Made by a program: the position numbers and the translations under genes
Shown: piece by piece, positions 4,780 to 48,500 of the stretch
How the letters are laid out: every line of letters begins with the position of its first letter
Position numbering within the stretch: the first letter of the stretch is position 1
Notes under the pieces: generated by a model
Seen by the model: the letters and a program-made list of their open reading frames with translations, nothing else
Told to the model about the DNA's origin: nothing
Databases searched by the model: none
Assembly (NCBI GenBank): GCA_963841915.1
Contig: CAWJEN010000006.1
Coordinates: 1,152,001 to 1,216,000 of the forward strand
Reading direction: 5' to 3'
DNA length: 64,000 bases
From: an uncultured Planctomycetota bacterium
Lineage (GTDB): Bacteria > Planctomycetota > Phycisphaerae > Tepidisphaerales > Tepidisphaeraceae

Positions 4780-4801
4780 GGAGTCTCTTTCAAGGCGCGT
4801 C

Positions 4802-7342: not shown

Positions 7343-7394
7343 AGTCTTTGGTTCAGGCGGAGGTGCGGATCAGGTTCTGGCCGGAGTCGATCAG

Positions 7395-8564: not shown

Positions 8565-8790
8565 GGCGTGAGGTGGAGGTGGACAGGGAGATGTTGTGCC
8601 CCGGGACGCGTAGCGCCCTGTTGACGTAGTCGGCTGGTAGAGGCCGCAACTTTGCTTGAATGGCAAAGACAAGTGATATTTCTTCGACGGTCAGAACGGT
8701 TGGCAGCCCGTGCCTCCCTCAACGACAACCGCGGCCCGACCTCTGGGGTCGGGCCGCGGCCACGGGGACATCCTGTCCAATCTGCGTTGT

Positions 8791-10500: not shown

Positions 10501-10598
10501 CGGAAAAGCCCTCGAGGCGGGTGTTGGTGGTGATGCGCCTCGACGGCGCGAGGGTTCAGTGAGGCAAACGGATCGGCGACAGATGACGCCGGGGCGAT

Positions 10599-11759: not shown

Positions 11760-11948
11760 AACGCGTGGCTGGCGGAAAGGAAGCGGGTTGTCGAGTCGGT
11801 GGTGCGGCGGAAGGCGGTGACACTGTGTCGGCCGCGACAACCCCGTCCGACGGTGCGTCGTCCTGATTCGCCCGCCGGTTAAGGCGATGCACAATGAAAT
11901 TGCTGTGATGCAAGCGGGTTTGTCTTCTCGGACCCCAGCGTCCGACGC

Positions 11949-11980
11949 AAAAAACGCCCGGCAGCAATGCTGCCGGGCGT
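11949..11980 (-). terminator. Rho-independent terminator after tadE
   Basis: Minus strand reads ACGCCCGGCAGC-ATT-GCTGCCGGGCGT followed by a T-run. Confidence 0.75.
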
Positions 11981-12012
11981 CTTCCGCATGAACAATCTGT
12001 TGCCTGGACCTT

Positions 12013-12456
12013 TTAACCCTCACGCCGCATCGTCGCTGACACTTTGATGTCGCTGACCCAGAAGCCGCTGACGCCGGTGTTGAGCGTGCTGAACTGGGAC
12101 CACGGTGCCGTGACCTCGAGGGTGACGGACGAGCCGGGCGCGACTGTCGACGGCGAGCTAATGGAGGAGGTGCCAGACTTGAGTTGCTGGCTAAAGGTGA
12201 TGTTCGGCAACCCGCCGCGTGCCATGGCGGCATCGACGGCGTCGGCTACATCGCTGCTCGACGCGTCGGGCACGATGGCCGCACGCACTCCTTCGCGGGC
12301 TGCATTGGAGACCGTGTGCCGAACGTAGAACATCCAGGCGAACTCGACGCTGGAGAAGAAGATCATCAGCAGGATCGGGAAGATCATCGCTGCCTCGAGC
12401 GTGATAGCTCCGCGGCGGCGACTCGAGCGTCTGGTGGGGTGGCGGTAAGGGTTCAT
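12013..12456 (-). CDS. tadE: TadE-like pseudopilin
   Basis: RRRGAITLEAAMIFPILL prepilin-type N-terminus and NAAREGVR. Confidence 0.9.
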   Translation of the reverse strand: MNPYRHPTRRSSRRRGAITLEAAMIFPILLMIFFSSVEFAWMFYVRHTVSNAAREGVRAAIVPDASSSDVADAVDAAMARGGLPNITFSQQLKSGTSSISSPSTVAPGSSVTLEVTAPWSQFSTLNTGVSGFWVSDIKVSATMRREG

Positions 12457-12520
12457 GGCGTTTCGTTGGTCTCAGATTCAGCCACCGCGGTGGCAAGTAA
12501 CGCAGATTTATCGGGTCGAC

Positions 12521-13183
12521 TCAAAGCCGTCCGAGGAAGATCGCCAGAACAGCAGCGATGAGGAACGGCACCGCGTGCGGCAGCGGTTTGGCGACGCTCG
12601 TGAAACGGCCTGGCAGCTGATCGTCGGGCACTTTGCCGTAGATCGTGAATCGCTCGGCGTTGGTGGTCGCCTGCTCCATGCCGATCCTGCGCAAGTGCAG
12701 GAACGTGGTCAGGAGCACCATCGTGTTCTTGAGGAGCATCTTGAGCCGCCCTGTCGCCGCGGCGGTGCCGACGACGACAAACAGGCCGACGATGGCTTCA
12801 AGTGCCGCCAAGACGATCACGCCCTGCCACCCGATCCAGGCACCTGCACTGATGTACAGTTTCGCATCGCCTGCGCCGCGGGCCTTGAGCATGAACAGCG
12901 GCACGCCGATGAGCATGGCCGCTCCAATGCCGGCAAAGGCGTCGATGGGCGTAAAGTCCGAACCGGTTGCCCAGGTGACGAACGATCGAACTACACCGCC
13001 TCCGAGTAAGGCAAAGGTCAGCCAGTTCGGTATTTTTCGCCTTTTCCAGTCGATGACCGCCGCGACAACGCACGCGATCAGCAGCGGGACGAGCGCAGCG
13101 ACGTGAACCGAGTAAGCCGGTTCCCAATGGGTCGGCCACATCCATGTCCATTCGAGACTGAGCGGTTGGCGGTCCACAGGCAC
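12521..13183 (-). CDS. cpaA: Prepilin peptidase CpaA/TadV (A24 family)
   Basis: IDWKRRKIPNWLT, GAGDAKL, PLPHAVP. Confidence 0.9.
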   Translation of the reverse strand: MPVDRQPLSLEWTWMWPTHWEPAYSVHVAALVPLLIACVVAAVIDWKRRKIPNWLTFALLGGGVVRSFVTWATGSDFTPIDAFAGIGAAMLIGVPLFMLKARGAGDAKLYISAGAWIGWQGVIVLAALEAIVGLFVVVGTAAATGRLKMLLKNTMVLLTTFLHLRRIGMEQATTNAERFTIYGKVPDDQLPGRFTSVAKPLPHAVPFLIAAVLAIFLGRL

Positions 13184-13228
13184 AACCTCAGCATCGGCAA
13201 AAATTGAAGGGGACTTGTGGCGGCGCGC

Positions 13229-13261
13229 AAAAACGACGCCGCCGAAAATCGGCGGCGTCGT
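13229..13261 (-). terminator. Rho-independent terminator after flp
   Basis: Minus strand reads ACGACGCCGCCGA-TTT-TCGGCGGCGTCGT followed by TTTT. Confidence 0.8.
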
Positions 13262-13286
13262 GGTTTGTGCAAGGACGAGCTAATGC

Positions 13287-13493
13287 TTAGCCGTCGAGGT
13301 CCGTGCCGCTGACGGTGGTGTTCATGCCCGTGAGCTTGCCCTTGATCGTGGCACCGAACGTGCGAACCGCAGCGATGGCTGCGATGACGATCAGGCCGGC
13401 GATGAGTGCGTACTCCAGGATTTCGCCGCCGTCTTCCTCTTTGTAGAGCTTGGCGAACGTGGACTTGGTGGTGTTGGTGATGCTGTTGAGCAT
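13287..13493 (-). CDS. flp: Flp/type IVb pilin
   Basis: 68 aa; EEDG/GEILEYALIAGLIVI Flp motif. Confidence 0.92.
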   Translation of the reverse strand: MLNSITNTTKSTFAKLYKEEDGGEILEYALIAGLIVIAAIAAVRTFGATIKGKLTGMNTTVSGTDLDG

Positions 13494-31785: not shown

Positions 31786-32601
31786 TTACATCGGCGGGTC
31801 GTACGCCTTGAAGTACTGCACAAGGTTATCGAGCAACCGCCTGCCGAGGCGTTCGTAGCGGGGGAAGTGCTTTTCGGTCTCGCTGCGTAATTTGTCGACG
31901 GCCCCACTGCCAAACGCTGCGCCGACGGCGCCGCCGTGCTTTTTGAGTAGCGCCTCGATGCCGTCGCGGGTGAACTCGGGGTGATACGCCAAACCGTAGA
32001 GCCGATTCTTGAACCGGAAGGCGGCGTTGCGGTCCCACGGGACGCTCGACATGAGCAGGTTGCCGCTAGGCGGAGGCGGACCGGGTTTGTCCGGGTCGTA
32101 CCCCTCAGGCGGCGGAAGTTTCGGCAGCGAGAAGCTGTCCTTTTGCCAGAAGAACATCGGCGTCCCGTCGCTGAGCCCGAAGAGCAGCGGGTCGGTCCCA
32201 CCCGGAAACGGCAGCCGAAGCTGGCCCCAGCCCAGGTGCGGATCGGCCTCGGCATCCTCGGCGTCGCCCTTACTTAAAGGTGTCACCTCCGCACCGGCGG
32301 CCTTGGCCAGGATCTGACTGCCGAGGCCGACACCCAGCGTCGGCCGATCTTCGTCCACAAACCGTTGCACGAGTTCGACTTCGCCGTCGAGCCACCCGGC
32401 CTTCTCGCCATACGCGTCGCCCGTCGTCAGCCGTTGTGGGCCACCGAGGATCACGAGCAGGCGGACCTCGTCGATGTCCTGCGGCACGCCATCGTGATCG
32501 ACACGGTGGACACGCGTCGGAATGCCAAAGTCGCGGAAGCTGGGCGTGATCTGCCCGGGGCCGAAGGCGTCGTCGTGCTGGAGGATCAGGCAGTAACTCA
32601 T
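31786..32601 (-). CDS. Type 1 glutamine amidotransferase-like protein (nucleophile Cys absent)
   Basis: ILQH, ILGGP, LGVGLGSQILA, GLAYHPE. Confidence 0.85.
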   Translation of the reverse strand: MSYCLILQHDDAFGPGQITPSFRDFGIPTRVHRVDHDGVPQDIDEVRLLVILGGPQRLTTGDAYGEKAGWLDGEVELVQRFVDEDRPTLGVGLGSQILAKAAGAEVTPLSKGDAEDAEADPHLGWGQLRLPFPGGTDPLLFGLSDGTPMFFWQKDSFSLPKLPPPEGYDPDKPGPPPPSGNLLMSSVPWDRNAAFRFKNRLYGLAYHPEFTRDGIEALLKKHGGAVGAAFGSGAVDKLRSETEKHFPRYERLGRRLLDNLVQYFKAYDPPM

Positions 32602-32690
32602 GGCGGCCCATGAACCTACGCGCGTTGTCGTCGCGGCACAACTGACGGGCTTGCTGCCCGTCAGGAATCCGGGCGAGGCGGCCACAAAAT

Positions 32691-32723
32691 ATGTTTGACA
32701 GATACCAAACATCACCCTACCAT
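32691..32723 (+). promoter_or_regulatory. Sigma-70-type promoter overlapped by a palindromic operator
   Basis: TTGACA (32695-32700)-N17-TACCAT (32718-32723); ATGTTTG-N8-CAAACAT (32691-32712) covers the -35 box. Confidence 0.7.
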
Positions 32724-32856
32724 GCTCGGGTGGGCAAGGCCGTTGTTCGGCCTCGTCCTGACCGTGCTGCCCCACTCGGGTGCGGCGTTTCGGACGCCAG
32801 GCGTCCCCGTTTTGCTTGCCCCCGCCGACGATCGGCGGGTGCCTTGTCACGTCCTC

Positions 32857-33348
32857 ATGGCCACACCGATCGACCCGAACGCGTTGTCCGCCCTTGGCGC
32901 CGCAGGCACTGCCACCCGCGATTTGGCGACCCGCAGAACCTGCCACGAGCAGGCACTGCTTCGCCGGGCGACGCATCTCGACGATGGCGAGCGGAGGCTC
33001 TTCGAGGCCCACATCATCCGCGGCCTGACGGTGCGGCAACTGGCGGGCCTGCTCGACATTCACGCCGGCTCCGTCGCCCGGCGGATCCGCTCGATCCAGC
33101 GGCGGTTGGTCGACCCCAACGTCGCCGCCGTCGTCGACGCCGGTGGGGCGTTGTCGCTGATTGATCGGCAGATCGCGATTGGTCACCTGCTGCGACGCCG
33201 GCCGGTGGCCAGCATTGCCGCCGACGTTCGCAAGACGCCGCCGATCGTTCGCCAGCGGCTGCAGTACATCCGCGGCTGGCTCAAGGGTCGCCGAGATGGC
33301 GCGTTCGCCATGCGGGTGGCCATGCAGCAGACCCGGGAAGCAGCGTGA
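32857..33348 (+). CDS. Tandem HTH (sigma-70 region-4-like) DNA-binding protein
   Basis: LDDGERRLFEAHIIRGLTVRQLAGLLDIHAGSVARRI and a second repeat LSLIDRQIAIGHLLRRRPVASIAADV. Confidence 0.65.
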   Translation: MATPIDPNALSALGAAGTATRDLATRRTCHEQALLRRATHLDDGERRLFEAHIIRGLTVRQLAGLLDIHAGSVARRIRSIQRRLVDPNVAAVVDAGGALSLIDRQIAIGHLLRRRPVASIAADVRKTPPIVRQRLQYIRGWLKGRRDGAFAMRVAMQQTREAA

Positions 33349-33415
33349 AGCGTCGCCCTTGTGTGCCTGGTCCCGAACCTTTGATCTTTCCCCTGTTTTC
33401 GCTCACCTGACGCCG

Positions 33416-34072
33416 ATGAACCTGTTCCCAACTCCGCTGATGCGACTGGCGGCCGACGTGTTCGGCGTCGACCCTGACGCGCCCGACGTGCTGCGCCCGC
33501 CGGACGTCGAACCGCCCGTCGCCGAGGCGGGCAAGATCGTGTTGTTCAACGGCCCGAGCGGTGGTGGCAAAACGACCGCCCTTCGTCGTCACGCCGACGC
33601 CGCTCGCGAGGCCGGTTGGCACGTCGTCGATGTCGGCCGACTGCGCCTTAAGCCGGTCGCCTGCGTCGAGCAGTTCGGCAAGAGCGGCGACGACGAACGC
33701 GACTTTGCCTTTGCCGCCAGCCGACTCAATCAAGTCGGCCTCGGTGAAGTTCGGGTCATGCTCCGCCCGCCCAGCCGGCTCAGCGACGGGCAGCGCTGGC
33801 GACTTCGCGTGGCTGTGGCCGTGTTTGGTGTCCTGCGTCGGCACGCCCTGGCCAAGAAGGCCAAGCGGCCAGGTGTGCCGGAACTGCTGGTGATCGACGA
33901 ATTCTGTGCCGTCCTCGATCGCGTAGCAGGCCCGGTGGTCGCACGGTCACTTCGCCAGACGATCGATCGCGTCAGCCGCGTCGGCGCGCCGCTTGCCGCC
34001 GCGGTGGCCACGAGTCACGACGACCTCCGCCCGGCCCTGCGACCGGATCACATCGTCTGGTGCGAAAGCTGA
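33416..34072 (+). CDS. Soluble ABC-type ATPase of the ATPase/acetyltransferase (COG2401-like) family
   Basis: GPSGGGKTT, signature variant LSDGQRWR, Walker B LLVIDEFCAVLDR and ATSHDDL..ALRPD; no TM partner nearby. Confidence 0.8.
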   Translation: MNLFPTPLMRLAADVFGVDPDAPDVLRPPDVEPPVAEAGKIVLFNGPSGGGKTTALRRHADAAREAGWHVVDVGRLRLKPVACVEQFGKSGDDERDFAFAASRLNQVGLGEVRVMLRPPSRLSDGQRWRLRVAVAVFGVLRRHALAKKAKRPGVPELLVIDEFCAVLDRVAGPVVARSLRQTIDRVSRVGAPLAAAVATSHDDLRPALRPDHIVWCES

Positions 34073-34077
34073 ACGCC

Positions 34078-34449
34078 TCAGCAGGCGACTTGCCGCAGGA
34101 GCACGAACAGCACCATGCCGACCATCACTGCCGAGAGGATGATCGCCCGCCGCTTGTCTTCCTTTTCGAAGTGCCGCGTGCTGACCTTGCGGTTGACGCG
34201 GGCCTTGGGATCACGTTCGTGGTCGACGAAGCACTTCTGGCAAATCGACGTCGGGCCCCAGGGTTTGAGGTTTTCCGGGACCGTCGGCTTGCCGCACTCG
34301 GCACAGGGGACGCGACGTTTCTTGTCGAGCCGGTGGCAGTCTTTGCACAAGTAACCGTCGCCGTCGCGATAGCGGCGGTGGCCGTCGAGGCTCGTGCCGC
34401 ACTGCTTGCAGACTTTGGGCTTCTGGGCCGTCGTGGTCGGGGTGCTCAT
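34078..34449 (-). CDS. Small protein with four CxxC pairs (two zinc fingers) and a C-terminal TM helix
   Basis: CKQC, CKDC, CAEC, CQKC; hydrophobic tail AIILSAVMVGMVLFVLL. Confidence 0.7.
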   Translation of the reverse strand: MSTPTTTAQKPKVCKQCGTSLDGHRRYRDGDGYLCKDCHRLDKKRRVPCAECGKPTVPENLKPWGPTSICQKCFVDHERDPKARVNRKVSTRHFEKEDKRRAIILSAVMVGMVLFVLLRQVAC

Positions 34450-34480
34450 CTGAAGAACGGGAACAGCAGGACTTTATGCC

Positions 34481-35026
34481 ATGTCGAGCACCTTGAATCA
34501 ACCCGCAGTCACTCGTTCGCCCTGGCGTGGCCCCGCGTGGATCGGCGGCCGCTGGCGGCTCACGACCGGCACACCCGCCGATTACAAGCTCCTGGCAAAG
34601 TGGCACTACCGCGCGGGCCAGCCTGCAACGTGGTGCCGCGTGGTCGTCGTTCGCCACGAACGCCCGGGCGTGCCGGCCCCGGTGGGTGACGTCGTCGCGG
34701 CCGTCGGTGTGCTGAGCTGGCCCACCATCTGCAGCCGCGGGCGGTTCGAAACCTTCGATCTCGACCGCCGCGACTACCGCCACCTCGCCCGCTGGGCCAA
34801 CGCCAACATCCGCACGATCAGCCGCGTCATCGTGCGGCCCAGCTACCGCGGCGCGGGTCTGGCCAAAGCCGTTATCAGCGAGCTCATCCACCGATGCCCG
34901 ACGCCCTACGTCGAAGCAACTGCCGCCATGGGAGCGTTTCACCCGATGTTCGAGCGCTGCGGCATGAAGCGTCTCGACCCCGCAGGTGGCAAACCCTACT
35001 TCTGGCGCGCGGTGCCGTCACCTTGA
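34481..35026 (+). CDS. GNAT-fold acetyltransferase (Mom-like/COG2401-type)
   Basis: LAKWHYR, ISRVIVRPSYRGAGLA acetyl-CoA motif, VEATAAMGAFHPMFERCGM. Confidence 0.8.
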   Translation: MSSTLNQPAVTRSPWRGPAWIGGRWRLTTGTPADYKLLAKWHYRAGQPATWCRVVVVRHERPGVPAPVGDVVAAVGVLSWPTICSRGRFETFDLDRRDYRHLARWANANIRTISRVIVRPSYRGAGLAKAVISELIHRCPTPYVEATAAMGAFHPMFERCGMKRLDPAGGKPYFWRAVPSP

Positions 35027-35180
35027 CCGCCGCGGAGCGAGTTGAAGAGAACTCACCTAAAATCGTGCAGATTCGCCCGAGGCCCTTCGGCTGCGCCCTG
35101 AAGGACGAACGGCGAACACGCTTACTCGCGGGTCAAAATCATATTGGCGGCCGCCGGGGCGCAGCGCGGCCAGAGCGTGC

Positions 35181-35699
35181 ATGTCCAAGACCATCACCGC
35201 CTCCCGGGCCGCCGAGCGGTTGCGCAACTTCGAAGCCACACGCAAAGTGCTGACGAGCCAGGAACGCAAACGGCAGTTCCCAAGCGCACAGCTATCCAAG
35301 AAGCACCGTGACGTGCTGGCGGCGGTCGCTGAGGGATCGTCGCTCGAAGAAGCTCGTCGTCGGCACAAGGTGGCCGATCGGACGCTGTTGAAGTGGATGA
35401 AACTACCAGAATTTGCCAAGCGTTTGCGGGAAAAGCAGGAAGTCGCCTCGCTGTGCAAAGGCGACGTCGGCCGTCTGCGGGTGATCCTGCTCGACGCCGC
35501 CACCGACGCCGCCCATGTGCTGGCCGCCAGCGTCCGTGGCGAAATCGAGCTCGACGCCAGCCGGGCCAAGTCGTGCCTCGAGGTGCTCAAACTCGTCCCA
35601 CTCGAAGCCGCGTCGGCAGACAACGAACCCTCACCTCTCGCCGCCAGCGTTACTGCGGCAGAAGCCAGCGACCTCGTCGACGCCCTGAAGAACCGGTAG
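35181..35699 (+). CDS. Probable terminase small subunit (N-terminal HTH)
   Basis: LSKKHRDVLAAVAEGSSLEEARRRHKVADRTLLKWMKLPEF HTH followed by helices, directly upstream of the large terminase. Confidence 0.65.
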   Translation: MSKTITASRAAERLRNFEATRKVLTSQERKRQFPSAQLSKKHRDVLAAVAEGSSLEEARRRHKVADRTLLKWMKLPEFAKRLREKQEVASLCKGDVGRLRVILLDAATDAAHVLAASVRGEIELDASRAKSCLEVLKLVPLEAASADNEPSPLAASVTAAEASDLVDALKNR

Positions 35700-35778
35700 G
35701 CCCCACGACCTCGCTCCCGCTTCCTCCGTCGTCCCAAGCGCAGTGGATCGACCCCATCTTCAGAAAACTTTCGCAAAA

Positions 35779-37173
35779 ATGCCCTTCAAGCCCTGCCGCA
35801 CGCCTGATCAACTCCACGCTTGGGTCCGCCTGTTCGTCGGCCTCGACGTGCCGCGCGTCGCACTGTGCGACGGGCACGATGCGCCGTTCGACTACCTCGT
35901 CAAAAGCTACTTCGAGCCGACGAACGACCTGGTCGTCTGGGCACCACGAGGCGGCGGCAAGACGCGGCTGGCGGCGGTCGCGACACTGCTCGATTTGCTG
36001 CACAAACCCGGCACGGCCGTCCGCGTCCTGGGCGGTTCGCTCGAACAATCGCTCAAACTCTGGGATTATCTGCTGCCCGACCTGTCGCGGATCGGCCGCC
36101 GGTTGTTCAAGGGCGGCAAGGCACCGCGGGAGACCAGCCGACGCGTGCGCCTGACCAACGGCAGCGACGGGGCCGTCCTGACGCAAAGCCAGAAGGCGGT
36201 GCGCGGCCTGCGCGTGCAGAAGCTGCGGTGCGACGAGGTCGAAGTCTTCGACGCCGACGTGTGGGAAGCGGCCCAGCTGGCGACGCGCAGCGGCCCGGTC
36301 GCCGCCGCCGCGGTCGAGGCCGCCAGCACGCACCACAAACCCGGCGGCCTGATGGGTCGCATCATCGACTCGGCCATACGTCGCAAGGTGCCGGTGTTGC
36401 GCTGGTGCCTGCTCGACGTGCTGGCCCGGTGCGAGCCCGAGCGGTCATGCGACGGCTGCACATTGTGGGACGAATGCGGCGGCAGAGCCAAGACGAAGTC
36501 GAGCGGCTTCATCAGCGTCGCCGACGCCATCGCCATGAAAGGCCGGGTGTCCAAAGAAACGTGGGAAGCCGAGATGTTGTGCCAACGGCCCAGCACGCGC
36601 GGGTGCGTGTTTCCGACGTTCGACGAGGCGGTTCATGTCAAACCGTTCGGCGGCAAGACGGGCGACTGGGCGATCGGCGTCGACTTCGGCTACGCGGCGC
36701 CGTTCGTCGCGCTCTGGATCGCGATCAACGGCGAGCAGGTTCACGTGGTCGACGAATACCTGCAACGCGGCCGCACCGTTCCCGAGCATGCGGCCGAGAT
36801 GAAGCGTCGCCAATGGCCGGCGCGGAAGGTGCTGTGCGACCCGGCCGGCGCGGCCATCGTCGGCCAGACCGGCGACAGCGACGTCGGCGTCCTGCGGGCA
36901 AGCGGCTTTGCGGTTCGGTTCCGCTCGAGCCGCATCACCGAGGGCCTGGAGCTCATCCGCCGCCGCCTCTGCCCCGCCGACGGCAGCGGCCCGACGCTCT
37001 TCATCGACCCGCGTTGCCGACAGCTCATCGTCGCCATGCGGTCTTACGCCTACGGCGAGAGAGTCGGCGAAAACCCGCACAAAGACGGCACCTACGACCA
37101 CCCGATCGACGCCCTGCGCTACGCGCTGGTCAACCTCGCCCGGGCTGAAAGAGTTCGATCGTCGACAGTGTGA
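35779..37173 (+). CDS. terL: Phage terminase large subunit
   Basis: Walker A APRGGGKT, VRG...LRCDEVE Walker B, AST coupling motif, RNase-H nuclease motifs IGVDFG, CDPAG and DHPIDALRY. Confidence 0.88.
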   Translation: MPFKPCRTPDQLHAWVRLFVGLDVPRVALCDGHDAPFDYLVKSYFEPTNDLVVWAPRGGGKTRLAAVATLLDLLHKPGTAVRVLGGSLEQSLKLWDYLLPDLSRIGRRLFKGGKAPRETSRRVRLTNGSDGAVLTQSQKAVRGLRVQKLRCDEVEVFDADVWEAAQLATRSGPVAAAAVEAASTHHKPGGLMGRIIDSAIRRKVPVLRWCLLDVLARCEPERSCDGCTLWDECGGRAKTKSSGFISVADAIAMKGRVSKETWEAEMLCQRPSTRGCVFPTFDEAVHVKPFGGKTGDWAIGVDFGYAAPFVALWIAINGEQVHVVDEYLQRGRTVPEHAAEMKRRQWPARKVLCDPAGAAIVGQTGDSDVGVLRASGFAVRFRSSRITEGLELIRRRLCPADGSGPTLFIDPRCRQLIVAMRSYAYGERVGENPHKDGTYDHPIDALRYALVNLARAERVRSSTV

Positions 37174-37290
37174 TCAAGTTGAGGGTCTGACGAAGTGGAC
37201 GCGACACGATGAGTATCGCGGTCGAACCGCGAGCGACAGTCGCCACGCGGACGCCGCATGATGAGGACTAGACTTGCAGCCCCACCGTCC

Positions 37291-37377
37291 GGAAGCGTGG
37301 CAGAGTGGTTGAATGTACCGGTCTTGAAAACCGGCAGGCACGCAAGTGTCTCGTGGGTTCGAATCCCACCGCTTCCG
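37291..37377 (+). tRNA. tRNA-Ser(TGA)
   Basis: GGAAGCG/CGCTTCC acceptor stem, CCGGT-CTTGAAA-ACCGG anticodon arm, long variable arm, GGTTCGAATCC; CCA not encoded. Confidence 0.95.
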
Positions 37378-37409
37378 CTACTTTAAGTCGAATGGTGAGA
37401 ACCGCCGCC

Positions 37410-37595
37410 TCCACCTCGTCAGGCGGCCGACGTCGTCGTAGGCGTAGCGGTGGACGAGCGTGTTCGTGGCGTCGCTGATGCGTTCTTCGATCAGGCGGCC
37501 CAGCGGGGCGGCCGGGGCGTCCCAATTCGGTTCGTCGCCCCAACCGTCGGCGGCGAGGGTCTAGTCGTCGTAGACCATCCCCGTGATGACGCCGG
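37410..37595 (-). pseudogene. Decayed Rhs/YD-repeat fragment
   Basis: Hand translation GVITGMVYDD*TLAADGWGDEPNWDAPAAPLGRLIEERISDATNTLVHRYAYDDVGRLTRW aligns with the Rhs segment GVVTEHVYDDETYV...LGRMVEERV...LVHRYAYDALGRRTAW. Confidence 0.8.
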
Positions 37596-37867
37596 TCCGC
37601 CGCCTACGTCGACGGGTCGTTCGGCCTGCGGATGTGGATCAGAAGAACGTCGGGACGCCGTATGTGGCCTCCGATCGCCAATACAAGCCGCTACCGACCG
37701 CTGCACGCTGCGACACGGCCACCGCCGCCGCGCAGGAGTGGGACGGCGGCTCCGGCTCACTCATCCTGTTGATCGGCCGCGGTAGCGAGAGAAGCGTTGG
37801 AAAAGGCTCGCGACCCCTTTTTCTCCCCGTCTAAATCTTCTCTGCAAAATAGGCTGCGGACTACAGG

Positions 37868-38419
37868 TTAAGTGTGTGACTCTGCGTCTTGGACGTCTTC
37901 CGGTAGGAGCTCGTCATTTGCCAGCGCGACTCTAGCTACAGCTTCCCCAACGGCAACGGGCTGAGGTGGCACATGTTCAATTCTGCTGTGATGCATCACA
38001 ACCACTCCACCTCTCGCAGGATGTGTCTGCTTTACGATAATCTCATTCTTTCGCTTCTGCACGATGATGTACTTCCAGACTGAACTAACAACGTCTTCTT
38101 CGTTAGAACCAAGTATTTGCCGGTGTTCTGCTTCAACTCGTTTACGAGTTTCGGCATCGGCAAAATGCGTTGAACTGCTTAGAGCCTTTAGTACGGAAGC
38201 ACCGATGCCTGCCGCATCACTGAGGCCCTGAAAATCCCATGAGGGCTCCCCGGAGCCCGTCCACATCCTACCCGCAAAGTGAACCGAGAGCACCTTCACC
38301 TCTGCTCGTGGACATCGCTTGACGTATACGGAGCATTCGTGAATGCCTGTGGTATCATAAGCCCAGTAATCTTCTTGCTCGGGCATGAGCTTCTGGAGAA
38401 TGTTGGTAAAATATCTCAC
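37868..38419 (-). CDS. Probable orphan immunity protein (CdiI-like)
   Basis: Visibly lower-GC 183-aa ORF; its start overlaps the stop of an upstream toxin-tip remnant; SDAAGIGASVLKALSSS resembles CdiI-type proteins. Confidence 0.55.
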   Translation of the reverse strand: MRYFTNILQKLMPEQEDYWAYDTTGIHECSVYVKRCPRAEVKVLSVHFAGRMWTGSGEPSWDFQGLSDAAGIGASVLKALSSSTHFADAETRKRVEAEHRQILGSNEEDVVSSVWKYIIVQKRKNEIIVKQTHPARGGVVVMHHSRIEHVPPQPVAVGEAVARVALANDELLPEDVQDAESHT

Positions 38420-38510
38420 GAGATAAATTGGACAACGACCTTAACATTCGGAAATTGCGAAGATGCGTTCTTGACCCATTGAGCAAGAGCTCCAGCTTGT
38501 GCCGCGGGAG
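38416..38510 (-). pseudogene. Possible remnant of a toxin C-terminal tip
   Basis: AAQAGALAQWVKNASSQFPNVKVVVQFIS* (helix plus terminal strand), truncated at the repeat and coupled to the next gene. Confidence 0.45.
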
Positions 38511-38739
38511 GTAAAGGGGTCGCGAGCCTTTTCGACACTGTGAGCACAGCATGATGTTCGCAGCCGTCGCACCCGCATGTTGTACCGCATCGGCCGAGGC
38601 GGCGACAAGGGTAGACCGGGCAATGAACCATCCGGAGGCAGAAAAGGCTCGCGACCCCGTTTTCTGCCCTCGCGACCCCTTTGTCTCCCCGGCAACAAAG
38701 GCTCGCGACCTTTATCTGCCGCCGTCACTGATGAAGCCA

Positions 38740-39549
38740 TCAGCGAGTTTCCACATGCTCGGCAGGAAAGCGGACGATGTGGTCCTTCAGCTTCTCAGGC
38801 ACCTCGATCTCGACGTCCGTGTACTCGGCGTAGTGCACGAGGAACGTCGCGTCCATTGCCACTTTCAACGTCACGTCCATCTTCGGGAACTCGGCCGTCT
38901 TGTAGTAGGTGGCGTAGTCGGCCAGCGAGCCCGACGCCTCCTCCTCGGCCCCCTCCAGAATATGTTCGAGGGTCCACAAGAGCAGCCGCTCGCGGCGACG
39001 CCGGCCTTCGAGGATCGTCGCGACATGTTCCTGAAGTTGCTCGCGGGGCCGGCCGCGGAGAACGCCGGCCAGGACCAGCAGCCAGGCCCTGTTCTCCTTC
39101 TTCTGGTCGATGTCGAGTTGGACGTCGTCCCGGGGGTACTCGGCGAAGCGGAGCAGGCGGTCCCACTCGCCGAGGGATGAGCACCAGACCAGGGCGTCTT
39201 GCCACGCCGAACTCCACGAGCATGTTCGATCCTGCCAAGCCCGGTCAGGTGGCTGATCGCCATAGTTCCCGGAAGGCTCCTCGTCCCGCCACGAGCCGAA
39301 GAAATACTCCTCCGTGGAGTTCAAGCAACGACGAGCCCATTCGGCGGAAATCCGATGCTCGTCCGCGAGATACGCCGTCAAGGCGATGAAGCCAAAACTG
39401 CTTTCGTCCGAAGAAAGCAACCCACCAAGCCCAACATTAGCAACCGCTGTAGCTTGCGGTACCTCCCTTCTGATCTCTTCATAGTCGTTTATTCTCTCTT
39501 GAAAAGCGTAATCATCTTTAGTTAGAGCCAATCGTGCTCGCAGGGTCAT
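38740..39549 (-). CDS. Cognate immunity protein of the Rhs toxin (helical, Imm49/PoNi-like)
   Basis: Starts 2 nt after the toxin stop codon; 269 aa, helical character. Confidence 0.7.
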   Translation of the reverse strand: MTLRARLALTKDDYAFQERINDYEEIRREVPQATAVANVGLGGLLSSDESSFGFIALTAYLADEHRISAEWARRCLNSTEEYFFGSWRDEEPSGNYGDQPPDRAWQDRTCSWSSAWQDALVWCSSLGEWDRLLRFAEYPRDDVQLDIDQKKENRAWLLVLAGVLRGRPREQLQEHVATILEGRRRRERLLLWTLEHILEGAEEEASGSLADYATYYKTAEFPKMDVTLKVAMDATFLVHYAEYTDVEIEVPEKLKDHIVRFPAEHVETR

Positions 39550-39551
39550 AT

Positions 39552-42500
39552 TTAGAAGTTGGATTGACCGATCTGGCCAATCGTCTTACGGGTAAAAGAA
39601 GGGTCGGCGACGACTCCTGTTGCTTTATCAATAGGCGTCTTGACAAGCAGCACGTCGAGCTTGCCAGACGTACGAGCTTTCTCTAGTTTCTTAGCCCATT
39701 GAAACGACTTCTTATCACGAAGGGTTTTAATCTGCTGCTCGATCCACTGCTTACTCAACTGCTGGTGCCCCGCCGCAAGCCGCGCCAGGTTCCCGGCACC
39801 GCCCTTGGCCTCGACAATCACCAGTCGGCCCGCCGCGTCCTCGAAGACGCCGTCGATGCCGTGGTACCGTGTCGGGAAGTCGTCGACCGACTTGAGTCCC
39901 AGCTTCCGGGCCGTTGTGATCGCCCCAAGTTCCCCGATCGTCGTCACCGCCCGGCGGCTCGCCGCCGCGCCGGAGTTCCGCAAGCCCTGGAAGGCGTCGC
40001 TGAGCACGCCGCCGGCCCCGTCGAGCTTGTTGCCCAACACCCGAGCTTTAGAGAAGAGCTCGCCGAACGGGATGACGTTGCTCAGCAGGCCGGCCAACAA
40101 CGCGGGACTGACGGTTCCGGTCGTGGCGAGTTGGCCCACGATCGTCACCGCATCCCGAATCGTCTCGGCCGCGTCGTAAGCCTTCAACGCCGCACCCACT
40201 TTCGGGCTGCGCATTGCCAGGCTGATCGACGTGCTTGCGCGACGAGTTCCGAATGTAAAGAACATCCCTGTCGGATCGTTCTTGTTGATCGCGTCGCCGC
40301 CGACGAAGCTGTAGAGGTTGGCGTCCCACAGCTCGCCCGGCCCCGGCAGGTAGCTGTCCTGGCTCAGCCAACGCCCGTCTAGGCCACGCAGGCGGCTGCG
40401 TTGGTCGTACGACTCGCTGATCGCGTCGTACCGCTCACCGTGGTGCAGGTGCATTGCCAGCGCGTCGCCGGGATCAAGAACCCCCAGCAGGTTGCCGTCG
40501 GCGTCGTAGGCGTAGACCTGGCCCGTGCCGAGCAGTGCCCGCGTGCCGCTGTGGCCGTCGGTCACGACGTGGCGCAGCACGTCCTGCGTCGCCTCGAATA
40601 GCACCCGGTCGGCGAAGACGCTGTGCCGCTCGAACGTGCCGTCCGCACCGGCGTCCTCGGCCAGCACCTGGCTGTAGCCGGTGAGGCTTTGGCCGTCGAC
40701 GATGTAGGCGGTTTCAGCGCCGGTCTCGGTCGTCGCCAGCACGCGGCGGCCGAGGCTGTTGTAGGCGAAGGTGTGCCCTCGGGGGTGCCGTCGTCGCCGC
40801 GGTCGATGCTCTGGGCTGGCCCAGCACGTTCCAAGCGTAAGCCACGTCGGCGTCGTCGGCCGTCAGGTCGTCCCTCAGCAGTGTGCTGCCGTTGTCGTCG
40901 TAGCTGTAGCTGGCGGTTTGGGTGCCGTCGGCCCATTCCTCGACCAGCCTGTCGTTGTCGTCCACCACGTAGGTCGTGGTGACGCCGTCCTTCAGCTGCT
41001 CGATGCGGTTGCTGGCGAGGTCGTAGCCCCACTCGCTGACCGTGCCGGCGATGTCCTCGCGGATCAGGCGGCCGATGGCGTCGTAGGTCCACGTCGTCGT
41101 GCCGTTCGTCGAGCCGGTGCCGCTTTCGCTGACGCTCCTACGCTGGCCGTTGCCGAAGTAGGCATAAGTCTGCCGCAGCGTGCCCGCTTCCTGCTCGAGC
41201 AGCCGGCCGGCCGTGTCGTAGGTGCGGGTGTAGTCCACATCATTTGGATGCTCCTCAAGCACACGGCGGCCCAGGGCGTCGTAGTGGTACCAACTGGTCC
41301 CCGCCGTCGTATCGATTCTCCTCAGGCGGCCGTGGTCGTCGTACGTGTAGCCGACATCGGCCTCTGTGCCCGGGGCGTCGAGCGACGTCAGGCGGCCGGT
41401 TGCCGGGTCGTAGCCGTAGGTGACGAGACCTTCGGGCTGGAGGTGCGAGGCGACGTTGCCGGTGACGGCGTCGTGCGTCCACGTCTCCAAACGATCAGGG
41501 ACTAGCTGCAGGTTGATTGGCGAACCGGCCGCGTCGTCAGTCTGCCAGCGACCCCAGGCCGTGCGGCGGCCCAGCGCGTCGTAGGCGTAACGGTGCACCA
41601 GCGAGGGTGACGATGCCGTGTCACTTTCGAAGACACGTTCCTCCACCATCCGGCCCAGCGTCGGCGAGGCAGGCCAGTCGAGGTCGGTGTCGTGCACGTC
41701 GGCGACGTATGTCTCGTCGTCATACACGTGCTCCGTCACAACGCCGTCGAAGGCGACCGTCGTCGCCACCCGGCCGCGGGCGTCGTAGGTAATCGAGTCC
41801 TGCTGACCCAGCGGCAGCGTCCGGCCGGACGGGCGGCCTTCGTCGTCGACGGCGAACAGTGTCTCGCGGTTCTGCGGGTCTTTCTGGCTCAGACGGTTGC
41901 CTGCCGCGTCGTAGACGTATTGGAACTTCGCACGGCCGAGCTGCGAGCCGGTCGAAGCGTCGGTGACCTCGGGTCGCCACGCCGCCACCAGACGGCCGGC
42001 GGCGTCATAAACCTCGTGCGTCACGCGGGCCGGCTCGGTGTCCGGGTTCCGCCGCTCGACACTCACCGAGTGCCGGCTCCCGGGGTTGACACTCATCGTG
42101 GCCCCAAGATCGGCAGGCGTGTTGAGGTTCAGCCCTGAGGTTGCTTGCGCCTGGTTTCCGGAGACGCCGCCGATGGCCAATGTCTCCGTGCCGTCGGGGT
42201 GCAGCGTTCGCACGGAGCCGGGCACCTCGTCGCGGATCGTCAGCGTCGGCCGGCCGAGTGCGTCTGTCCACAGCGTGCTGCGTCGGAACGCGCTGTCGTG
42301 AGACGTGGAGACACCGGTGAAGTTGCCGTTGGCGTCGAACTCGTTCTCGATGATCTCGCCGGTAGTGCCGATGATGCGAAGCGCCGGCCGATCTTGCTCG
42401 GCGGCACGCACCGTGCCGTTCTCGATGCCTCGACCGGTTAGGACGTAGCTGAGGGCACTTGGAGCCGCGGTGTCGATGGGCACGAGGCGAAGGACGGCCG

Positions 42501-45500
42501 AGTTGGGCTCGCGGATGGCCCGCACGTTGAACTTCGTCGCGGGCGTGATGCTGTTGATCCCGTCGGCGAGTTGCTGTGCCGCCGCCCGTTGCGTTTGAGC
42601 GTTGCCCGAGGTGAGCACGTTGGAGAGATCGACGGTGACGGTTTCGGAAGTCGTCGGATCGATCGGGTCCGTCAGCGTGAGCGTGAAGGAGTCGTCGAGA
42701 TCAAGCTGGCCGGTCACTTCCACGCGATTGGCGTTCCACCGGTCGGCGAGTGTGCCGGCCACGTCTCCTCGCCCGTCACCGGCGGAGGAGGTGTGCGACT
42801 CGCGGGCGTCGCGGAAGTGCAAGGCGGCGGCAGCGTTCACAGCCGCTGGGTCGACGTACGGGTCGTCGTACGCCGCTGCTACGTGCCAATCTGCCGGCGC
42901 GTCGGCCTTCAGCGGCCCGCTGAATCGGACGCTGCCGTCGAACCAATAGACCGTGCCGACGCGTAAACCATCGGCGTTGACTTGCTCGACCGCACGGCCG
43001 CGGCCGTCATAGACGGTGCGCGTCGTAGCGACCCGATCCGATGCGGAAACGACGGCCGGCAACGTGCGGTAGAGGCCGCCGACTTCTTCCAGCGGGATGC
43101 GTGCGTCGGCGTACTGCTCCGTACCGGCCGCACGACCCAGCGCGTCGTAGATCGTGCGGGTCACGACGTAGCGCGAGGCGTTGTCGAGGTTGCTCCACGA
43201 GATCTGCGGGTTCTGCTCGCTGTAGTTGAAGCTGGCTTGCGTCGTGCTGGCGAACTGCTCGGCCTGCCACTCGGCTCGACCGAGCGCGTCGTAGGCGGTC
43301 CGTGTTTCGGTGCCGTCGGGACGCTGGGTCGCGATGACACGACCTGCGGCGTCGTACAGCGTCAGCGTCGTCGGATCGGTCGCGTCAAGGTTCGGGCCAT
43401 ACTGCTCGACATTGGCGACGACGAGTCCACCGTCACCGTGGTAGGTGTGGGACACGGTGCCGACGGGATTGGCAAGCGTGATGTTGTCGATCGAGCGGAC
43501 GGCCCGGCCGGCGGCGTCGTATTCGGTGAGGCCGTTGGAGATGCTGACGAGCGTGCCGTTGTTGTCCCACTCGCGGAAGGTCTGCGCAACGGAGCCGTCA
43601 GGCTGATAGGTGTAACGCGTGACCAGGCCGGCCGCGTCAGTCGACGTGTCGAGGCGGCCGAGGTGCGTCCCACTGGTGACGTAGGTGTTGCTCGACAGCT
43701 CGGCCAGTTCGACACCGTTGGCATCAACCGTGAACGTTCGCAACAGCAGTCCCTTGTCCAGGTCGCCGATGCCGTCGGTGTACTCGTAGCGGGTCTCTTC
43801 ACCGAGATGGTTCCGACTCCACAGGAGGTTGCCCGCGTCGTCATATTCGTTGCGGGTGACTTGCCCGTAAGGATCGACGACACGCTGCACACCGCCGAGT
43901 TCGTGGTAGGCATGATCGGCTCCGTCCGCCGGATCGGCCTCGTACCAAGTGGTCAGCCACGAGACGCCGTCGGGCGCGAGGACGCGCTCGTAGACGGGCT
44001 TCCAAAGGTCTGTGTCGGAGCTGGCGGGCAGTGCGTCCGTGTAGTTCTTGAAGCTGACCTCTCGGACCTGGCGTGTCGGCGCGAGGTAGAGCCGCTTGCC
44101 ACTCAGGTCAGGGGCCGGCACGGAAAACGGCTCGAATTCTCGCAGCGTGTGGGGCCGATTCCATCCGATCTCGTCGCCGCCTTCTCGGGTGTTGATGATG
44201 GCGGCGTCGTTGTACTCGTACTCGCGGACGGTCACGAGGTAGCGGGTGACGAGCCCGGTGTTGGTGTCACGCTCGGCCCGAATCTCGCGGACGACTTGGC
44301 CGAGCCGGTCATAGACGAACTCGGTATCATTGCCCTCGGCATCCGTTGAGGCGGTGAGGCCGGTGGTCCCGGTGAAGAAGCCACTGTCTAGCAGCGACGC
44401 GTTACCGTCGGCATCGGAGACGGAGGCAAGTCGGCCGGCGGCGTCATAGTCCGCCGCCAGCACGTCGACGTCGCGGGCGTCCGTAATTGTCTCAAGGCGG
44501 TGGCCTGGGCCATATGCGAACGTGGTCACATCCTCCGCGACATCCTTGACAGAGACCAACTCGCCCTCTGACGGCGTCCCGGCGTCGCCGTAGGTGTAGA
44601 TGACACGGCGAAGAACGCCACCACCGGCATCGATAACTTGCGCCTCGCTGACTTGTGAGCCGTTGCGGAGCACGCGCAACGTCAGGCCGCCTGCCGAGGC
44701 GACATCGCCACCGCTGTTGTCAATGAAGGTTGTGGGGTTCCCGTTCGCGTCTGTGCGCGAGCGCACCCTACCGGAGTCGGCTTCGATTTCATACCGGGTT
44801 CCATCTGTAGTTGTGACGTAGTAGCGATTACCGAATTGTGCGTTGGCGGGATTGTATCCGTTGGCACCAACTTTAAAGAACGAGCCGTCGCGGATCAGGG
44901 TGTAGGAATTGACGTCGTCCCACGCTGGGTAATCCGAGTGATCTGGACCGACTAATTCACTTTGGCCGCCAGCTCTGGAGCATGACTTGCAGCGTGGCAC
45001 CGCTGCCGTCAGCTGCGACGAACTGCGGACGCCATGCGAAGCCCAGGCCACTGAAGGGGCTTTGAAAATTCCCCGTCGACCGGTCGGAAGACGAAGGTGC
45101 GTCTCCCGATGCCGGGTAGGTCGATGTAGCACCGGGTCGTTCTCGCGAAGGGCCGGCGGCTCGCTGCCGACGAGCGTGTCGCCGCGGGCATCCGTCTCGA
45201 CCTCCGCCTCGTCAAGCTCGAGACGCCAGCCGTACCCGAAAGCGAGCCGCTCGTGAGCACGGGACGAGTCGTACACGCGTCGGACCTCGATCGGCGCTTG
45301 GCCGGGTACGTCGAGCGTCAGGTCAACGAACGGCAGGACAAGGTTGCCGAGCTTGACGTCCGTCTTGATCTCGACCGATACGCGATCGACGGCATTGGGC
45401 GTGGCGGACTGACCGTCGTCTACGTGGAGAACGAGGTCGTAAACACCATTGGGCAACGACGCCGCGTGCAGCGTTGCCAGAATGCCGCCGTCGGCGGGAA

Positions 45501-48500
45501 TCGAGCCGACGCGGCCGACCGCGTCGTCGACGAGCACGATCGGCTCGCCACCGTCGCGTGGCTCGAGGCGCAACGAATGGGTGAGCGTGTCGTTGGCGTT
45601 GAGGTCCTGAACGACGCCGAATACATCAAAATCTCGAGAGATAATGAACGGCTCACCCGTCGATGGCGGCGAGAGAAGGCGGCCGATCGGAGCGACCTGA
45701 TCAATGACCTGCAGCGAGAATTGGACCTGCCCTGCGCCGACGACTTGGCCATCAGATGCACGAGTCGCCGTCACGCCAATGAAGTAGCCGCCTCGGTTCG
45801 CTGCAGTAAATGTTGCTACGGAGTCGTCAACCGCGTCGACCACCAGGCTGGCGGTGCTGAAGGTGTTGTCCCACGTGAACGAGCCGTCGAAATCAGTGAT
45901 CGGACCGCCATACTGGTCGAGCACCACCGCCCGCAGATCAATGGGATCATTCGGTGATGTGGCTGCTGGATAAGGAACGGATTCGACGCGTAACGACGTC
46001 GGCACCTGGACACTGTCGAACGTGACGGCGTAGGGATCCGAGAACAATGCCCCGTCGGACGCGACCACCGTGAACCCGTAGATGCCGGGGCCCGGAAGGT
46101 CGAGAACAACATTGCGGGCTTCGACCGACCCGTTCCAACTGGGCAGGTCGACATCGCTAATCGACAAGCCAGTGGGGACGGACGTGACGGCCCACGTGTA
46201 AGTCAGGAGGTTATTGTCACCATCGGAATCAGTGCCGGTGGCCGAGAGGGCCAGTCGATTGTCGTGCAACTGGCTGAGGACGCTGACGACTTCAGGAGCT
46301 TGATTAGTCTGATCGGACACTTCAACGACCAGCTCTCCTACCTGATTCCCCTGCTCAACACGTACCGTGTATGTCCCGGGTGTCGTTCCGGTGTTCAGCC
46401 ATGCCTGTCGACCAGCGATGGTCGGGGTCAAGCTCGCGTCAGTGTTGGCCGGATCGAGCGGCTGCCACTCGGCATCAGAGGGAACGAATGGATGGTTGAA
46501 CTGGTCAAAGTAGCTGGCATGAATCGCAAGCAGCCCGTTCTTTGGGCTGGTTACCGAAGGCACCGGGCTACCCGGCAGCGGTGGGAGCGAAATTGCTGTT
46601 GTCGCCGAAGGCGATCCGACTGGTGTCGTGAGCTACATCGAATGTCACGTTTACGTAGCGGCTTTCGATGTCCACATCAGGATGGTCGACCCGAACCTGA
46701 AATGCGTAAATGCCAGCAGCGTTGTACAAGAGCGACGTTGAAGCTTCGGTAGCCGGCTCCAGCCATGTCGGCGACGCGAGCGACGGCTTTTTCACCAAGG
46801 TCCAGCTGTACGACAGATCAGAAGCGTCACCATCGACGTGAGCGTCGATGCTCAGCTCCACGACCTGCGGGTTCATCGGGTCGGCGCTGTTTGCCGTGCT
46901 GCTCTCTACGGTTATGTACGTCGACGGATCAGGATCGACGATGACTTCGAAACTTGCCTCGCTAATTAGGCCCTCTTCATCCGTCACGCTGAATGAGACT
47001 GCATGTCGACCACCGCTGTAGAACTTGGTGTCCCAAGAAAGCATGCCCGGGATCTCGCTACTAAAGACAGGCTTACGCGACCCGAGAGGTCTGAGAACTT
47101 CAAATAGGAGCTTGCTCGAGTCGCCGTCGGGGTCGATTGCTTCGACATCTACGATGATGGTGTTGCCCCCGTAAATGTCGGCTACCGCGTATTGCGGCTC
47201 GATCGGCGTGATGCGGGGCGGCAGATTGATTGCCATGCCGACGGCAATGTTCGACCAGGCCGAGACGCCGAAGTCGCCCTCTGCCCGCACGCGGTAGTGG
47301 TAGCGGAAGTTCCAGTCTTCCGGCACATCTGCAAAGATTGCCGCGTCGCCGTCCGCCTGCCCGGCGAACTCGAACTGGTTGCCGTCGAGCGACCGCTCGA
47401 TCCGGAAGGAGGTCACCAGACCGGCTGAGCGTGTCGCCCAGGATAATTCGATGATCTTGCCGTCGCCCTGCGTCGCGACGAGCGTCGTCGGGCTGGCCGG
47501 AACGCCGCGGAAGACGTCTACGGCAAGCGTGCGATACCGCTCGTTCGTCGCACCCGGTTCGCCGGCAACAAGGTTGTCAGGGTAGTAATCGTCCCGATAC
47601 TCCAGTGCGATAAGCTGATCGGAATCGCCATGGTGCGTGAAGCTGATGCCGTAGGAGTGGTCAAGGTCGGTGCTGGGTGCTCCCCAATACGGGAACTTGT
47701 TCGACACGGAACCCGTGAAGACTGCCGGAGTGTTGACGTCCTCTGCAAGTCCGACGGCGATGCCGTAATCGAGGAAGGCACCCCGCCAGGAGCTTCCTTG
47801 CTGCCGTTCACCAGGGGCCCAGGGCCACTGGCCGTACTCAGCGTCGGCGTCAAAAGGCACGTCATCAGCACTGTCACCCAGACGGAACGAGCCGTCGACC
47901 AAACCATTGGCCGAACCATCTTCCGAAATTTCGTCGCGGAACGAAACGATACTGTCCTCGACATTGAAACCGACCCGGTTGCCGAAGGCGTCGAAGCCGA
48001 GGCTGTGGACGAGTTCCAGCGGCGAACCGTCACGCCCTCGATAGATGTCGAAGCCTTCGTAAGCGTGAAGGTTGCCGTATGCATCCCGCGGCTCGTTCCA
48101 CGTCAGTCGGATGCTGTCTGAAGATTGCGCCCGAGGGCCAACTCAGTCGGCCCTTCGGGTGGCTTCGGAAGATCACTGCCGAACCGTCCGCGAACGATAG
48201 CAAAGATCAAGGATAGAGACGACTCCGTCCCCGTTTGCATCGCCCGTTTCGAAAGTTCCCGCCTGGCCATGGTTCGCTCGCAGGATCGCCCAGTCTAGGA
48301 TGTTGACCTCTCGGTTGCGGTCAAAGTCTCCAGTGTAGAAGAAGTAGGCATCTTCATCGTTGAACCGCCGCTTCTCGGTGCCGATCGGCGTTGTCTCACC
48401 CGACCTGAAAATGCCGTCTTCGTGGACGGTCAGCTCGTAGTTGCCGTCCGGCGGGTAGGCAGTCTGCACATGATTAGGCGGAAGCGTTGCCGTCAGGCCG

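Follow-up and report, generated by a model that had tools for sequence, protein, structure and literature searches.

A dispersed phage-derived packaging and head gene set in Phycisphaerae: a candidate gene transfer agent-like element

Introduction

Why should a bacterial chromosome keep a phage DNA-packaging motor with no capsid gene beside it? This question is raised by a 64,000-nucleotide stretch of DNA from an uncultured planctomycete of the class Phycisphaerae (G000:C6:1152001-1216000, where G000 is its genome and C6 the contig; the whole stretch is called the window), in which a helix-turn-helix (HTH) gene, an ATP-binding cassette (ABC) ATPase gene and a GNAT acyltransferase gene precede the genes for a small and a large terminase-like protein (TerS and TerL). 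A preliminary description of the window called this module "capsid-less" and suggested that it could be one piece of a dispersed, domesticated gene transfer agent (GTA)-like system. Proven GTAs represent a handful of independent domestications, and their resemblance to prophages makes their true frequency hard to judge. In the present analysis, genes for a portal, a mini-scaffold and a capsid were found on another contig (C5) of the same genome, so that the term "capsid-less" is true for the window only; this capsid locus, its co-distribution with TerL and a series of reduced forms are new in this analysis. The best explanation is that an ancestor of much of the Phycisphaerae domesticated the gene set of a tailed phage, of which the module is the half concerned with regulation, DNA modification and packaging; the module is very probably domesticated and functional rather than a relic.

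The packaging module and its separate head locus

The module consists of the following genes (window positions).

32857..33348, plus strand: tandem-HTH protein, sigma-70 region-4-like (weak family matches, below the Pfam cut-off), a candidate transcription activator
33416..34072, plus strand: soluble ABC ATPase, partner of the GNAT protein (phrog_293/11143)
34078..34449, minus strand: double zinc-ribbon protein with a C-terminal membrane helix, antisense, between the ATPase and GNAT genes
34481..35026, plus strand: GNAT acyltransferase of the ABC-ATPase-coupled clade (PF00583 above cut-off; phrog_886)
35181..35699, plus strand: small terminase-like (TerS-like) HTH protein (phrog_1482, E 7e-4), directly before TerL
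35779..37173, plus strand: large terminase TerL (longest open reading frame from 35743; PF17289 above cut-off; phrog_2, E 2e-18)

The five co-oriented, uninterrupted open reading frames previously described are indeed present on the plus strand, but the antisense zinc-ribbon gene had been overlooked. This gene recurs with identical position and orientation in 5 of 23 relatives' loci, as well as in three more loci of family f1, to which G000 belongs; its recurrence at this place is confined to part of that family, and it is possibly a bystander of the module. TerL probably starts at ATG 35779 rather than at GTG 35743. Its RNase-H nuclease and ATPase motifs are intact, as had been claimed: the Walker A residues K73 and T74, the Walker B residues D164 and E165, the coupling-motif residues S195 and T196 and the nuclease aspartates D314, D366 and D456 are invariant in all 18 aligned rows. 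Four further invariant cysteines, C230-C245 (window 36466-36513), which had escaped notice, lie between the ATPase and nuclease domains and likely represent a metal site. In the ABC ATPase, the Walker A, signature and Walker B residues are invariant (15 rows) and the H-loop region is less conserved. Among the 23 relatives' loci, the ATPase gene was recovered in 16, the HTH gene in 15 and the gene for the fast-evolving TerS-like protein in 7.

The head genes lie on contig C5 (841427-844694) and are flanked by host genes.

G000:C5:843078-844694, minus strand: portal, PF05133 (SPP1-type)
G000:C5:842633-842866, minus strand: mini-scaffold, 77 amino acids, with a C-terminal motif shared with full-length scaffolds
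G000:C5:841427-842578, minus strand: SU10-type major capsid, PF17236 (E 2e-79)

The 77-amino-acid protein is regarded as a scaffold remnant because its C-terminal motif is common to the full-length scaffolds of deeper families. Together with a distant repressor gene, described below, the system in G000 is spread over three loci on two contigs. The same genes stand together in other members of the class: in genome G097, the whole set (HTH, ABC, zinc gene, GNAT, TerS, TerL, portal, mini-scaffold, capsid, adaptor and three small genes) forms one cluster of ~10 kb between host genes, and the cluster of genome G032, likewise of ~10 kb and between host genes, additionally holds the repressor and further neck and tail-like genes. 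These arrangements indicate that the module in the window is half of a split cluster. In 40 genomes chosen for having both matches on one contig, the median distance between TerL and capsid genes is 28 kb, exceeding 20 kb in 23 genomes and falling to 6 kb or less in 3. Loci 0.1-1 Mb apart, as found in several near-closed genomes, cannot share one head; the ~10 kb cluster of G097 might. A lipoprotein gene at G000:C3:216258-216764, whose homologs (F28) follow the head cluster in several relatives, is possibly a fourth dispersed part.

Distribution across the class

A sample of 251 genomes of the class, each at least 90% complete, was searched, absence meaning that a gene was not found with the queries used; G006 entered the counts solely as a genome with weak or no matches. 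Matches were obtained for TerL in 155 genomes, capsid in 140, GNAT in 180 and repressor in 159, with TerL and capsid together in 136, TerL only in 19, capsid only in 4 and neither in 92. The matches are nearly always single-copy and their presence follows family lines, with a similar pattern by family for the repressor: TerL and capsid were found in 23 and 21 of 23 genomes in family f13, in 13 and 13 of 13 in f12, in 33 and 34 of 40 in f1, and in 7 and 7 of 29 in f5, and no match to either was found in the sampled genomes of f4, f10, f14, f18 and f21. The count of 155 for TerL is too high, since some matches are to a second type, which is more prophage-like and has a different portal; 136 genomes is the safe figure for the system. 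Loci of this second type (L042, L186, L187, L184) carry another portal and capsid (phrog_145) and a TerL of 33-37% identity. In G021, the ABC-GNAT pair sits within a different prophage-like region.

The presence and synteny of the module in relatives had been proposed as a check, and the module proved to be syntenic and intact, with conservation across at least 15 families; TerL is present in all four congeners of G000. The loci of two genomes, G030 and G228 (L037, L185), keep the repressor, HTH, ABC, GNAT, TerS and TerL genes. In a phylum-wide sample of 301 genomes, a capsid of 44-46% identity also occurs in nine that do not belong to the class, which may reflect a sister domestication or a deeper origin. 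At two loci of family f65 (among L164-L167), the capsid gene belongs to a compact head-plus-tail-like cluster beside a putative arginyl-tRNA synthetase gene.

Inheritance and selection

Vertical inheritance, another of the proposed checks, was examined by comparison with RpoB, and the trees follow the host. Splits shared with the RpoB tree numbered 10/19 for TerL, 8/18 for capsid and 9/15 for portal, as against a proportion of ~0.24 at random, and one strong conflict was seen, for portal. For the 16 genomes in which all four genes are present, the concatenated tree and the RpoB tree agree on 11 of 13 splits, and no strong branches conflict; the two differing splits both fall within f1. In the TerL tree, the f1 clade is supported at 96/96 with the IMG/VR relatives outside it; in a further tree, the support of the wider host clade is only 78. 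Two rows, L134 (the same DNA as a host locus) and L029, were left out of the trees, as were 18 of 59 rows (long branches and near-duplicates) of the tree with the wider host clade.

The capsid gene shows dS of 1.7-2.3 and omega of 0.055-0.097, the only usable omega values, as synonymous sites are saturated for most genes. The dN of TerL is 0.19, compared with 0.23-0.56 for two neighboring host genes. Among the phage-derived genes, conservation is highest for the capsid (mean identity 58%, compared with 48% for TerL and portal).

A recognizable prophage in the same genome served as a control.

G000:C5:181640-216288: lambda-like prophage at tRNA-Lys, with an integrase and a 44-bp att repeat

To judge from their sequences, this prophage also has a terminase, a portal and a tape-measure-like gene. 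Its TerL was found in one of five close kin, compared with five of five for that of the module, and its integrase had no match in the relatives' loci examined, although this is a weak test. Its median codon adaptation index is 0.667, against 0.660 for the genome; the host-like composition that had been put forward as evidence for the module is therefore uninformative, since a genuine prophage of the same genome is equally host-like. A cheap-amino-acid signature was also considered, and nothing clear emerged (capsid at the 17th percentile, portal at the 49th, TerL at the 66th). One protein of the control prophage carries a piece resembling the insertion domain of the capsid.

A promoter, an operator-like motif and a CI-like repressor

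Two candidate regulatory features were recognized, the first of them absent from the preliminary description.

32691..32723, plus strand: sigma-70-type promoter (-35 box 32695-32700, -10 box 32718-32723) with an overlapping operator-like motif
G000:C5:1299531-1300328, minus strand, outside the window: CI-like XRE/S24 repressor

The promoter is the only sigma-70-like site within window positions 32500-37500 (0.2 in shuffles). In G000, the operator-like motif is a perfect 7-8-7 inverted repeat (32691-32712). Across families, a motif over the -35 box is conserved ahead of the HTH gene (25 loci; score 13.3, against 9.2-9.3 for shuffled sequences), with a good copy absent from several of these loci, and a matrix built without the site in the window ranks that site first in the whole genome (30.0 bits, vs. 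18.2 bits for the next). The motif is a candidate binding site of the CI-like repressor, which retains the catalytic Ser and Lys of the S24 dyad and an Ala/Cys-Gly cleavage site. Repressor and HTH genes are divergently oriented in 7 of 25 relatives' loci, whereas in G000 the repressor gene is distant, on C5; persistence of the motif after the move of the repressor gene is as would be expected of an operator read in trans. A genome-wide regulon was sought with the operator matrix and rejected, no second convincing site being found in G000. Identification of the repressor as LexA was likewise rejected, because the sequence of a separate gene at C5:25071-25679 is LexA-like. In the accessible text on GafA of RcGTA, an HTH is described as combined with a sigma-like region (PMC6363796).

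The ABC ATPase/GNAT pair and the phage origin of the module

The GNAT protein had been termed "Mom-like", a label for which no specific support was found. Its predicted structure (pLDDT 91.6) is a confident GNAT fold whose structural neighbors are generic GNATs, tRNA acetylases among them; the Mu Mom structure (8bv8) appears only at rank 48 (Z 10.8, rmsd 3.2, 146 aligned, 9% identity), many unrelated GNATs score above it (top Z 12.9), and no Mom-named family was matched in family searches. The gene does adjoin that of a soluble ABC ATPase and is homologous, with it, to a phage pair, which places it in the ABC-ATPase-coupled GNAT clade (COG2401-type). At the f4 and f18 loci, ABC and GNAT are fused in one protein; three of these loci (L180, L181, L182) have no terminase nearby, and an XRE-type gene lies ahead of the fusion in two of the three. 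The clade is presented, in the available portion of one survey, as a predicted and uncharacterized DNA-base acylation system distinct from Mom (PMC7824862), and by analogy the present GNAT is a candidate DNA-base acylase.

The best matches of TerL among cultured phages are ~25% identical and come mostly from SSU5-like phage-plasmids. In Escherichia phage PhiR41_1, the order of genes is ParB-like, ABC, GNAT, small gene, TerS-position gene, TerL, portal, scaffold and capsid, and the ATPase upstream of the terminase and the GNAT are 33 and 26% identical to those in the window; the shared gene order and the homologous ATPase and GNAT indicate that the pair was inherited as phage equipment. A tblastn search of the GNAT against cultured phages gave no match, although the pairwise match to PhiR41_1 exists. 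ParB-like genes are present in several of the relatives' modules. The solved TerL structures nearest to this TerL include the enzymes of SPP1, P22 and T4, which are headful packagers.

Related TerL genes were found at 28 IMG/VR loci, one of which is host DNA and the others 24-41% identical; in the contigs L137-L159, the open reading frame often covers only the ATPase half and stands in a non-head context. For the capsid, 2 of 33 IMG/VR loci are close (48-53%; L195, L196), one being phage-like, as discussed below, and the other resembling a host cluster. Single-protein pattern scans, which are insensitive, returned no viral loci and three named genomes. PADLOC produced only two weak ATPase matches, none meaningful.

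Stepwise loss of tail, neck and adaptor genes

In deep families, the capsid gene is followed by an adaptor-like gene, a weak tail-completion match and several large genes, whose only links to phage tail and Mu gp36-like adaptor proteins are leads at atlas level; the largest tail-like protein (F10) has a predicted fold of pLDDT 44 and no significant structural match. Retention of neck and tail-like genes in these families suggests that the ancestral role involved delivery. Family f1 has lost the tail-like genes and retains at most the adaptor and three small genes. The products of two of these, a protein that has a membrane helix and a lipoprotein, are guessed to be holin- and spanin-like. In the genus of G000, the only head genes left are those for portal, mini-scaffold and capsid.

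A model and its alternatives

These data modestly favor a GTA-like element that was domesticated independently, is probably inducible by damage and would package host DNA in its heads for transfer. A CI-type repressor would sit on the operator over the sigma-70 promoter; upon DNA damage, activated RecA would bring about cleavage of the repressor, and the tandem-HTH protein would then switch on the head operon. A prohead would be assembled from portal, scaffold and SU10-type capsid and be filled by TerS/TerL in headful fashion with host DNA, the cargo proposed here because there is no phage genome to be packaged. The ABC ATPase/GNAT pair would acylate bases, making the cargo resistant to restriction. 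Delivery of the DNA would fall to the neck and tail-like genes in deep families, whereas this family and genus would produce only DNA-filled heads, and borrowed tails or uptake by recipients would be needed. A more tentative extension, which we regard as possible rather than probable, is that within an ancient, independent viriform lineage of Planctomycetota a tailed GTA evolved in this family into a tailless one. Its heads, built with a mini-scaffold but without neck or tail, would be induced by damage and filled by the terminase with chemically protected host DNA, and would move genes via borrowed phage tails or whole uptake, or serve as DNA stores.

The GTA-like proposal came through each of the genomic tests that the preliminary description had laid out. 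Structural genes exist elsewhere in the genome, the module is neither absent nor decayed in relatives, and TerL does not nest among recent temperate phages, cultured phages being only ~25% alike. Several observations nevertheless weigh against it. The approximately unbiased test rejects the exact RpoB topology (p 0.003; replicates below the program's recommendation). An adaptor profile matched none of five genomes of this genus (positive control G039) and a holin-like profile none of four tested (control G019), tail-like profiles had no match in G000, and no endolysin was recognized in any cluster; the missing tail and adaptor genes argue against a textbook tailed GTA in this genus. A search for a shared activator motif upstream of the portal gene gave no significant result (9.3, against 8.8-9.0 for shuffled sequences). 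On one phage-like IMG/VR contig, the capsid gene groups inside family f2, implying that exchange with phages occurs, and related prophage-like clusters exist in the class. Finally, G030 (one contig, 99% complete) and G228 keep an intact module, and portal, capsid and adaptor of these types were not found in them. Families f4 and f18 keep the fused ABC-GNAT with no TerL match, indicating that parts of the system can be selected separately.

The alternative that survives best, although it appears unlikely, is domesticated interference with phages, in which the heads and terminase made upon infection or SOS induction would soak up phage tails or DNA, or cut or mis-package it, much like capsid-forming satellites except for being fixed in the chromosome, and the GNAT would mark self DNA. 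The stepwise loss of tail-like and neck genes with head and motor still under selection is consistent with such a role, as is CI-type control; against it, the system is single-copy and all-or-none by family, whereas defense systems are usually patchy in distribution. No meaningful PADLOC match was obtained, and without the adaptor this genus lacks the site at which tails usually dock. In its favor, the lambda-like prophage of the same genome could supply tails, and cf-PICI-type elements pair their own heads with helper tails, as described in the available sections of PMC13230959.

Still less probable is a tailless DNA-filled compartment, in which heads would store or protect DNA or be released as repair templates or nutrients, with no injection. 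The retention in this genus of only the portal, the scaffold remnant with its conserved C-terminal motif and the capsid, itself the most conserved phage-derived gene, would suit such a compartment, and a damage-type repressor fits a role in repair; the neck and tail-like genes kept in deep families do not, and no precedent was found in the literature search.

Re-use of the motor and the ABC-GNAT pair for a capsid-free cellular task, the capsid locus being kept for a separate reason, is improbable to a marginally greater degree. It would account for G030 and G228, for the ABC-GNAT that persists alone in f4 and f18 and for the 19 TerL-only genomes; several of the latter, however, have another portal/capsid type (G029, G067) or are fragmented assemblies, 136 of the 155 TerL-positive genomes have the capsid and only 4 have the capsid alone, and in G097 both halves form one operon.

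A decaying prophage relic devoid of function is very hard to sustain, for although tail, lysis and replication genes are absent in this genus, a stop lies inside the match in 3 of the TerL matches listed and related prophage-like clusters occur in the class, the catalytic motifs are intact and the system is kept in at least 15 families, is single-copy and shows host-like trees and purifying selection, all after dispersal.

The candidate is present in over half of the genomes sampled from an entire bacterial class. The repressor, operator, candidate activator and base-modifying pair offer direct handles for induction; full cluster, head-only and motor-only forms make up a natural series; and the pair provides a clean system for finding the chemistry of the ABC-coupled GNAT clade. 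The data also carry a warning that SU10-capsid contigs from these bacteria can be misfiled as viruses.

Other features of the window

37291..37378, plus strand: tRNA-Ser(tga), a neighbor outside the system

The tRNA-Ser gene reported after the module is present, but its proximity is incidental, as it adjoins the module in none of 25 relatives' loci. A role as attB was ruled out on the same ground and because its 3' end is single in the genome. The window contains no integrase and no att duplication, in agreement with the preliminary description, and no att repeat was found for the module. Downstream of the tRNA lies an Rhs/YD-repeat island (window 37406-46563) that contains a repeat remnant, lower-GC orphan open reading frames (37868-38419 and 38740-39549), possibly immunity genes, and 28-bp repeats at 37800, 38506 and 38641. 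A Tad/Flp pilus-like gene cluster, recognized from translations, occupies window 3815-13493.

Comparison with known systems

No description of the system was found in a literature search, in which subscription papers and supplements were largely beyond reach. Relative to the viriform criteria in the available part of the source (bioRxiv 10.1101/2022.06.10.494566), TerL, TerS, portal and major capsid match caudoviricete families; endogenization is full and extends over several loci (TerL and capsid more than 20 kb apart in 23 of 40 genomes); and inheritance is mostly vertical, with trees largely congruent with RpoB. Three of the six criteria are thus seen in the genomic data, and the system is classed as a candidate GTA, not as a member.

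As far as RcGTA (Rhodogtaviriformidae), BaGTA and BhGTA are covered in the accessible texts (bioRxiv 10.1101/2022.06.10.494566; PMC7947584; PMC6363796), the system resembles them in its phage-derived TerL, portal and capsid, its several endogenized loci, vertical inheritance, lack of integrase or replication genes and some exchange of genes with phages, the last also reported for RcGTA (PMC7947584). The candidate activator with a sigma-factor-like HTH recalls GafA, as a comparison of features only. The system differs in its host phylum, its SU10-type capsid (PF17236) and SPP1-type portal (PF05133), its CI-type cleavable repressor and ABC-ATPase/GNAT modification pair, and the loss in this lineage of first tail-like and then adaptor genes. 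The head genes of RcGTA are of the HK97 family (PF05065/PF04860). By these family labels, and by its planctomycete host, read from the names of homologs (Tepidisphaeraceae, Phycisphaerales and Sedimentisphaerales), the present system is set apart from Rhodogtaviriformidae.

With cf-PICI and cf-PISP satellites, as described in the portions available of PMC13230959, the system shares its own head and terminase genes, a repressor and the absence of a tail, a combination that is seen in family f1. Those satellites move as units, carrying a recombinase or replicon as well as an HNH nuclease and an adaptor (PMC13230959), whereas the present system is dispersed over loci flanked by host genes, forms no contiguous mobile unit and is class-wide. 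It also differs from a prophage, as there is no integrase or att duplication in the window and its presence among close kin is not sporadic.

The SSU5-like phage-plasmids (PhiR41_1, Cyrano and Salmonella SSU5) have a similar order of pre-terminase and head genes, but TerL identity is only ~25%, the main type of the present system has other portal and capsid families, and the phage-plasmids are autonomous replicons of ~108 kb with full tails. ABC-coupled GNAT systems and Mu Mom share with the module the GNAT fold, the adjacent or fused ABC ATPase and the phage context; in contrast to the phage systems, the pair in Phycisphaerae is chromosomal and vertically kept.

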